Shown here piece after piece: positions 12,265 to 13,182 of a stretch of DNA of 64,000 bases (the first letter of the stretch is position 1; the number at the start of each line of letters is the position of its first letter). Under the pieces are notes generated by a model, which ran no database searches, was not told the origin of the DNA, and saw only the letters and a list, made by a program, of their open reading frames with translations. Where the stretch lies: the NCBI GenBank assembly GCA_000004985.1, contig GG738923.1. One strand, 5' to 3'. The translations under genes were made by a program, and so were the position numbers. Origin of the DNA: Naegleria gruberi. Lineage: Eukaryota.

Positions 12265-13182
12265 TTAGTTACCACCTCTCAATCTCAAGACCAAGTGAAG
12301 GGTTGATTCCTTTTGAATGTTATAGTCAGAAAGGGTTCTACCATCTTCCAATTGCTTACCAGCAAAGATAAGTCTTTGTTGATCTGGTGGAATACCTTCC
12401 TTATCTTGAATCTTGCTCTTAACATTTTCAATAGTATCATTAGATTCGACTTCAAGGGTAATTGTCTTACCAGTGAGAGTCTTGACGAAGATTTGCATAC
12501 CACCTCTAAGTCTCAAAACCAAGTGGAGAGTGGATTCCTTTTGAATATTGTAATCAGACAAAGTTCTACCATCTTCCAATTGCTTACCAGCAAAGATAAG
12601 TCTTTGTTGATCTGGTGGAATACCTTCCTTATCTTGAATCTTGCTCTTAACATTTTCAATAGTATCATTAGATTCGACTTCAAGGGTAATTGTCTTACCA
12701 GTGAGAGTCTTGACGAAGATTTGCATACCACCTCTAAGTCTCAAAACCAAGTGGAGAGTGGATTCCTTTTGAATATTGTAATCAGACAAAGTTCTACCAT
12801 CTTCCAATTGCTTACCAGCGAAAGATCAATCTTTGTTGATCTGGAGGGATACCTTCCTTATCTTGAATCTTTGACTTGACATTTTCAATGGTGTCGTTTG
12901 ATTCAACTTCCAGAGTGATTGTCTTACCAGTCAAAGTCTTGACAAAATTTGCATACCACCTCTCAATCTCAAAACCAAATGCAAAGTAGATTCCTTTTGA
13001 ATGTTATAGTCTGAGAGGGTTCTACCATCTTCCAATTGCTTACCAGCAAAGATCAATCTTTGTTGATCTGGAGGGATACCTTCCTTATCTTGAATCTTGC
13101 TCTTAACATTTTCAATGGTGTCGTTTGATTCAACTTCCAAGGTAATAGTTTTACCGGTCAAAGTTTTAACGAAGATTTGCAT
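12265..13182 (-). CDS. Polyubiquitin, 4 units + C-terminal Asn (second unit carries a compensating +1/-1 indel pair)
   Basis: The ubiquitin is [76 protein letters not shown] (S19, N20, S28). The span is 918 nt, which equals 4x76 codons + Asn + stop. Units 3 and 4 are intact and near-identical at the nucleotide level. Confidence 0.85.
12276..13182 (-). repeat. Tandem 228-nt ubiquitin-coding repeat array (4 units)
   Basis: Head-to-tail coding repeats run 12276-12503, 12504-12731, 12732-12959 and 12955-13182, with long stretches of nucleotide identity between units. Confidence 0.85.

Follow-up and report, generated by a model that had tools for sequence, protein, structure and literature searches.

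A four-unit polyubiquitin array of Naegleria gruberi is interrupted in the draft assembly by two mirror-image single-base lesions

Structure of the array

We analyzed a window of 64,000 nucleotides (nt) from contig GG738923.1 of Naegleria gruberi (NCBI GenBank assembly GCA_000004985.1), in which a polyubiquitin gene lies on the minus strand. The gene consists of 76-codon ubiquitin units joined head to tail without spacers and occupies 13182..12265, that is, 918 nt or 4 × 228 plus AAC (Asn) and TAA. TRF reported a period of 228 with 4.0 copies, and an independent repeat finder placed the units at spacings of 228, 229, and 227. The array comprises the following elements.

12265..13182, minus strand: polyubiquitin array of four units followed by Asn and stop; exact 305-residue Naegleria polyubiquitin after mending of two single-base lesions
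12955..13182, minus strand: unit 1, intact; the sole unit read from the first ATG as written
12727..12954, minus strand: unit 2, bearer of both lesions
12499..12726, minus strand: unit 3, perfect ubiquitin
12271..12498, minus strand: unit 4, perfect ubiquitin
12265..12726, minus strand: units 3 and 4 with Asn and stop, intact and in register with unit 1, located 3' of the premature stop

Units 1, 3, and 4 each translate into the same perfect 76-residue ubiquitin, and tblastn returned 100% ubiquitin for all three; unit 2 was matched in two pieces lying in different frames. The array closes with a single extra C-terminal residue (AAC for Asn, followed by TAA, at 12270..12265), and the same Asn is found in N. 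fowleri and N. lovaniensis. As assembled, no single uninterrupted open reading frame (ORF) spans all of the units. Beyond codon 3 of unit 2 the frame breaks, and only two base edits restore it.

Two single-base lesions in unit 2

The lesions and the stop codons that they expose are located as follows.

Between 12944 and 12943, minus strand: lesion 1, one base absent after the T4 run at 12947-12944; the assembly reads ATGCAAATTTT^GTCAAG
12820, minus strand: lesion 2, one surplus base, C on the coding strand (G on the plus strand), ATCTTT[C]GCTGG
12931..12933, minus strand: first premature TGA in the frame of unit 1
12826..12828, minus strand: second TGA in the frame of unit 1

The two sites read ATTTT-GTC and CTTTCGCT in the assembly, and their canonical, lesion-free readings are ATTTTCGTC and ATCTTTGCTGG, respectively. 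The same junction occurs in N. lovaniensis with a C in place (ATGCAAATTTTCGTCAAGACTTTGACTGG), which identifies the base missing at lesion 1. Between the lesions, 123 nt (41 codons) are out of frame; when unit 2 is read in its own shifted frame, ubiquitin residues 4-45 are still perfect. Translation from the first ATG yields an ORF of 83 residues (13182..12931), one ubiquitin followed by MQILSRL.

An earlier note on this DNA, made from the sequence alone, had described four units with Asn and stop, a −1/+1 pair in unit 2, units 3 and 4 back in register, and a Ub-MQILSRL product. Our alignments and translations confirmed this arrangement, and the product corresponds to the 83-residue ORF. The lesion pair, the out-of-frame stretch, and the in-frame TGA that it reported are likewise present, and their positions are corrected here: the insertion is at 12820 and not near 12810, the shifted stretch measures 123 nt and not about 135, and the TGA occupies 12933-12931 and not 12928-12930. 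The exact length of 918 nt merely restates the −1/+1 balance: any two single-base indels placed at random have an even chance of canceling.

The lesions mirror each other. Site 1 reads TTT-G in place of TTT-C-G, and site 2 reads TTT-C-G in place of TTT-G. TTTG occurs 13 times in the repaired array and TTTCG once; given lesion 1, the nominal probability that a random insertion would be a C at TTT^G is 0.0035, a figure calculated post hoc. The shared context counts against two independent random mutations and in favor of one context-dependent cause, which could be a fault of base calling or consensus or one mutational event guided by microhomology.

The repaired gene and its homologues

With one C added at lesion 1 and base 12820 removed, the array encodes a 305-residue protein that matches annotated Naegleria polyubiquitin exactly over its full length. 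The matching proteins are EFC43848.1 and EFC47569.1 from N. gruberi itself, KAF0984361.1 from N. fowleri, and KAG2374793.1 from N. lovaniensis. A gene of three units plus Asn, common to N. fowleri, is also annotated in N. gruberi (EFC42002.1). At least three intact annotated polyubiquitin loci are found elsewhere in the N. gruberi genome, so that the check proposed in the earlier note, whether the other loci are intact, has a positive answer. Their accession numbers fall far outside the block of this scaffold, and the ubiquitin unit occurs ~15 times in the genome, across four loci.

In nucleotide comparisons, the identity of the array to the N. fowleri and N. lovaniensis genes is only 85%, and it reaches 88% with a metagenomic Naegleria-type contig. 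A metagenome scan for the junction of units 1 and 2, with the base optional, returned 11 matches, all with the base and all from other eukaryotes at 75-83% identity. Because of this origin, they do not represent independent copies of the locus. Prokaryotic assemblies scanned for Naegleria contamination gave no match.

A dead unit was observed in another Naegleria-type array, on contig Ga0509141_014555 of Joint Genome Institute (JGI) metagenome 3300051561 (L003). Positions 1-75 of this contig hold a partial fifth unit ahead of an array of four units plus Asn, and in it ATG TAA replaces AAG GAA (K63M, E64stop). The dead unit directly precedes the ATG of the functional ORF.

Divergence among the units

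Among the repaired units, 40 of the 228 columns are variable, with 12-31 differences per unit pair and none of them non-synonymous. Each unit shows the synonymous-only divergence that marks purifying selection. Seven sites are private to unit 2, all of them synonymous, including an AGC-to-TCA serine switch at Ser28 and variants in columns 39, 42, and 78. Given these synonymous-only differences, unit 2 was under full purifying selection for as long as its differences can be traced, and the lesions postdate all of its substitutions.

The differences are unevenly distributed along the units. Units 2 and 3 differ only within columns 9-129 and are identical from column 130, and units 3 and 4 differ only within columns 165-219 and are identical up to column 164. 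These identities bear out the concerted evolution that the earlier note had proposed from the pairwise homogenization of neighboring units. They correspond to one continuous tract.

12335..12826, minus strand: perfectly 228-periodic tract

Within this tract, with base 12820 left out, 12826..12563 matches 12597..12335 at all 263 of 263 positions. The inserted base is the sole difference between the two copies, indicating that there has been no time for substitution there. It falls within the duplicated 263-nt tract, 6-7 nt from the left edge, a placement expected in ~3-7% of cases by chance. The pattern looks like the result of a single recent unequal crossover or conversion (U1-P-Q to U1-P-Q5'/P3'-Q). 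Concerted evolution is a known mode for polyubiquitin genes, and mosaic units are its normal product (PMC10457151).

Genomic context

Four long ORFs in the window are exact matches to the N. gruberi proteins EFC36969.1, EFC36974.1, EFC36976.1, and EFC37020.1, which belong to one scaffold of 326,815 bp. The sequence of the window stops at 49121, where the scaffold ends, and the remainder is padding; a 50-N gap is present at 47678-47727. The assembly is an 8x-era Sanger shotgun draft from 2010, and the only N. gruberi genome, that of strain NEG-M, was obtained by Sanger sequencing (Table 1 of PMC9928731). The array is flanked by a TRIP13-like AAA+ gene upstream and a teneurin-like gene with NHL, EGF, and transmembrane (TM) segments downstream. 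The following features also bear on the locus.

9758..12218, minus strand: teneurin-like NHL/EGF/TM gene, 5'-truncated, with two frame switches and no annotated protein
44681..48170, plus strand: ATP-dependent DNA ligase gene, broken by the 50-N gap
13183..13232, minus strand: 5' leader motif (ACAAATCAAAAAAAATCAAAT...TAAAG, then ATG), common to the ligase-linked four-unit genes of N. lovaniensis and N. fowleri

The NHL coding sequence starts 47 nt after the ubiquitin stop and is without a signal peptide and the first blades; we found no NHL sequence upstream of the array. At the frame switch at ~12138/12135, roughly one blade has been lost out of frame. The switch at ~11533/11527 is a seamless join when compared with the paralogues, with codons overlapping at AACAATCCATT. 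As many as 795 stop-free codons remain, which gives the gene the appearance of a young pseudogene; it is probably one that marks a rearrangement breakpoint. A homology search with the stitched NHL protein, which was swamped by repeat proteins, revealed no annotated N. gruberi protein with more than 44% identity.

In N. fowleri and N. lovaniensis, a ligase orthologue with BRCT domains lies tail to tail beside the four-unit polyubiquitin gene (L001, 6082-10510; L002, 6022-10610). The N. gruberi ligase is 31.5 kb from the array, in an orientation that goes beyond a simple inversion, and no other gene is shared with the loci of these two species. A leader of the pattern ACAA(A)TC-A8-10-(T)CAAAT(A/C)AC...TAAAG is kept right before the ATG across the three Naegleria species (~4950-5000 in L001 and L002), and the TAA-ATAAA tail of the array is conserved with the orthologues of both other species. 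From its position and conservation, the leader motif may be a core promoter or an element of the 5' untranslated region. Since leader and tail are conserved with two orthologues, the array looks like a relocated counterpart of the ligase-linked gene that has retained its proximal signals. No heat-shock elements were found upstream of the array in any Naegleria locus searched. A related A8 motif precedes the three-unit gene (L015).

The break in the TRIP13-like gene, 1.3 kb from the array, consists of three genuine introns and is not a frameshift. These introns, of 43, 47, and 43 nt with donors GTTTGT, GTTTGT, and GTTAGT, split the Walker A motif (14420-14241, minus strand) and leave micro-exons of 6 nt (14368-14363, GAACAG) and 5 nt (14315-14311, GAAAG). 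Three introns within 22 coding bases are unusual.

Several other genes of the window deserve mention. A GST-like ORF (48587-49024, plus strand) stands at the 3' end of the ligase gene, in the slot held by polyubiquitin in N. fowleri and N. lovaniensis, 97 nt short of the scaffold end. EFC36974.1 is a USP-type ubiquitin carboxyl-terminal hydrolase (PF00443; 34968-36020, plus strand) encoded 22 kb from the array. EFC36969.1 (284 residues; 2176-3030, plus strand; UniRef name "Dirigent protein") falls into a 90% cluster with the 286-residue N. gruberi protein EFC36031.1, whose scaffold, of 40,673 bp, may represent a paralogue or an alternative haplotype of part of the region.

Discussion

The earlier note had offered two readings of the −1/+1 pair, artefact or real decay, and both survive our analysis in altered form. 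An artefact of long-read polishing is inapplicable to a Sanger draft, and a collapse of repeat copies is not needed to explain the data. As for decay, a gradual degeneration is contradicted by the absence of any non-synonymous difference in 918 nt and by a shifted stretch that still encodes ubiquitin.

On balance, we lean toward the view that the pair is an error in the 2010 draft, absent from the DNA of the organism. The assembly contains the lesions, their repair is exact, there is no other damage, and the two sites have a common context; from these observations we infer a cause in sequencing or assembly rather than in mutation. All of the damage consists of indels, the 123 shifted bases still code for ubiquitin, and units 3 and 4 are unharmed. 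Damage restricted to indels points to an error in read tails or in the consensus, as neutral decay proceeds mostly through substitutions. The conserved leader and ATAAA tail, together with the partly kept ligase linkage, make the locus look like a conserved live gene, and the occurrence of a 50-N gap and a scaffold end within the window of a Sanger draft also counts for a sequence error. Under this explanation, a pair of base-call or consensus errors would have arisen inside a multi-copy repeat, the interior of the array probably being covered mainly by the low-quality ends of flank-anchored reads or by ambiguously placed reads. The locus would then be an ordinary four-unit gene encoding a 305-residue precursor, from which deubiquitinases would release four ubiquitins and the terminal Asn would be removed.

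Our estimate for a draft error includes a quite improbable variant in which reads from different loci, haplotypes, or units were merged within unit 2 into a chimeric consensus, the indels being the seams of a 123-nt patch. If so, the adjacency of the TRIP13-like, polyubiquitin, and NHL genes may itself have been mis-joined. Unit 2 is indeed a mosaic, resembling units 3 and 4 in columns 13-45 and unit 1, with private variants, in columns 46-135, and equaling unit 3 from column 130 onward, and the right-hand lesion falls on a mosaic boundary. Polyubiquitin and NHL genes both come from families that are rich in repeats and present in multiple copies, and the start of the NHL gene, 47 nt past the array, is abrupt. 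However, no informative mosaic boundary is found at the left-hand lesion, and mosaic units are normal under concerted evolution (PMC10457151).

A number of observations weigh against a draft error of any kind. At 8x, a Sanger consensus can usually be trusted, and two other four-unit loci were assembled without frame errors; compared with typical Sanger consensus errors, two of them 123 nt apart in one context are unusual for a multi-read consensus. A low-quality stretch should carry miscalled bases, yet no non-synonymous difference is present. The neighborhood gave no clean low-quality signal when checked for general errors: the break in the TRIP13-like gene is genuine, and those in the NHL gene are at least partly structural. 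This NHL neighbor is truncated and frame-broken, and its junction near 12138 looks like a structural deletion and not like base-call noise. The array probably lies at a true breakpoint of rearrangement and is dispensable given the three other intact loci. Finally, neither the 83-residue product nor any of nine other gene models, including two units plus Asn (2Ub+N), the TTG-180 ORF, and spliced variants, was found for this locus in a collection of 15 billion proteins. Three units plus Asn (3Ub+N) are present in the collection, as the separate locus EFC42002.1, and one unit plus Asn (1Ub+N) only in N. fowleri. As far as these ten candidate products show, the locus appears to be unannotated.

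The main rival, to which we give a sizeable though less than even chance, is that both lesions are real and that the locus is a polyubiquitin gene copy or allele that became null, or mono-ubiquitin, very recently. Its predicted product, Ub(1-76) followed by MQILSRL, would keep Gly-76, so a deubiquitinase could free one normal ubiquitin while units 2-4 would be silent; with its long 3' region, the mRNA may also be subject to nonsense-mediated decay. The loss would be tolerable with three intact polyubiquitin loci in the same genome. The array abuts the probable NHL/EGF pseudogene and is 31.5 kb from the ligase, which speaks for a rearranged neighborhood, and the metagenomic Naegleria-type array described above likewise holds a dead partial unit. 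Measured against what is expected of a pseudogene, the locus shows a disrupted frame and a premature stop, and it shows no relaxed constraint, with zero non-synonymous differences in 918 nt and with units 3 and 4 perfect. This absence of non-synonymous change, together with the shifted stretch still encoding ubiquitin, means that the lesions, if real, are extremely recent, and they probably come from one event. Two frame-breaking indels beside no non-synonymous difference would be expected in only ~1% of cases if they had arisen independently, with substitutions being ~5-10x more common than indels, and the conserved leader and 3' signals are those of a live gene.

If the lesions are real, both most plausibly arose jointly, from error-prone repair synthesis or template switching during the recent crossover or conversion. 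Gene-conversion synthesis in yeast produces ~30% −1 and ~10% +1 frameshifts, mostly in 3-4-bp runs, along with patches from misaligned template switches (PMC12891019), and repair synthesis of this kind is rich in 1-bp indels at such runs and in template-switch patches (PMC12891019, PMC3039667). Both of our sites follow T3 or T4 runs, as do the yeast conversion frameshifts, and the insertion stands at the edge of the freshly homogenized 263-nt tract. On the other hand, the run lengths are unchanged, the C being lost or gained beside the run, and two mutations in one repair event are very rare, the yeast per-event mutation rate being ~4e-4 (PMC12891019). Taken as a whole, the proposition that the two lesions are real and stem from a single recombination event, in which a microhomology-guided template switch or an error-prone repair patch swapped the TTT(C)G junctions bounding a 123-nt tract while the array turnover behind the 263-nt duplication was under way, strikes us as unlikely.

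Everything beyond a draft error and a real young lesion has, in sum, very little room. In principle, ribosomes could make full polyubiquitin from the sequence as written by shifting −1 at CAA AUU UUG and +1 at UUU CGC. By formal logic, the −1 shift at site 1 would read M-Q-I-F-V-K, and a slip of tRNA-Phe from UUU to UUC before CGC would restore F-A-G-K. Such recoding is hardly credible: AAAUUUU is out of phase for an X_XXY_YYZ heptamer, as the zero-frame codons are CAA AUU UUG and do not form a slippery site; two successive low-efficiency shifts would yield almost nothing of a protein needed in bulk; and the shift sites are not conserved, since N. fowleri, N. lovaniensis, and the three N. gruberi paralogues have continuous ORFs. 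Removal of the damaged stretch by a spliceosomal intron has as little in its favor. Exhaustive enumeration gave 137 GT..AG excisions that reopen the frame, one of which (12959..12732) leaves exactly three ubiquitins plus Asn. Clean excisions are a trivial consequence of the 228-nt periodicity, however, and 12959..12732 would use a GTGGTA donor and remove perfect ubiquitin coding; all of the other excisions mangle a ubiquitin unit. The local introns, those of the TRIP13-like gene, are 43-47 nt long with GTTTGT or GTTAGT donors, and nothing similar is present in unit 2. The ALTERNATIVES that fail are the intron, recoding, and a misreading of the UBB+1 type. The last of these does not fit a single-base lesion in a genomic assembly whose predicted product keeps Gly-76.

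The feature is ordinary either way, and our understanding of ubiquitin biology is unchanged by both outcomes. Should the preferred reading, a draft error, be right, two wrong bases have apparently hidden a conserved polyubiquitin gene from the N. gruberi annotation, and the sequence needs correction at 12944/12943 and 12820. Real lesions would represent the very recent loss of one polyubiquitin locus out of four redundant ones, with an expected yield of one ubiquitin per transcript (from Ub-MQILSRL, cleavable after Gly-76) in place of four. The locus would then be a modest example of how tandem arrays die, possibly via recombination-associated indels. If a single event caused both, the array would capture repair-synthesis mutagenesis in nature, with three of four units killed and a mono-ubiquitin gene left. 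Public data for strain NEG-M comprise Nanopore R9.4.1 and R10.4.1 reads, enzymatic methyl sequencing (EM-seq), whole-genome bisulfite sequencing (WGBS), and strand-specific RNA-seq (PMC12695648, PMC12344493).

Comparison with known systems

The extra C-terminal residue of yeast UBI4 is Asn, as in the Naegleria array. Yeast UBI4 and human UBB and UBC are built from the same spacerless head-to-tail 76-codon units, with synonymous-only unit differences and mosaic or duplicated tracts. Such tracts indicate unequal crossing-over or gene conversion, which is described for polyubiquitin genes at large (PMC10457151). In contrast to genes of this type, the N. gruberi ORF is interrupted in unit 2 as assembled, and only unit 1 would be translated.

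The lesions resemble consensus frameshift errors of Sanger whole-genome shotgun assemblies in being isolated single-base indels without substitutions, placed in a multi-copy repeat on a gapped scaffold. With the frameshift mutagenesis of double-strand-break repair in yeast, they share 1-bp indels beside 3-4-bp runs, an out-of-register patch, and a homogenized tract (PMC12891019, PMC3039667). That process has been shown experimentally in yeast only, whereas the N. gruberi run lengths are unchanged and the lesions may be errors of the assembly.

A likeness to UBB+1 lies in the frameshift at the border of units 1 and 2, which gives a ubiquitin with an aberrant C-terminal tail. UBB+1 results from a dinucleotide deletion at the mRNA level; without Gly-76, it is uncleavable, is not conjugated, and acts as a proteasome inhibitor. 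The N. gruberi lesion, by contrast, belongs to the genomic assembly, and its predicted product keeps the Gly76-Met77 bond and should be processed to ubiquitin and a heptapeptide.

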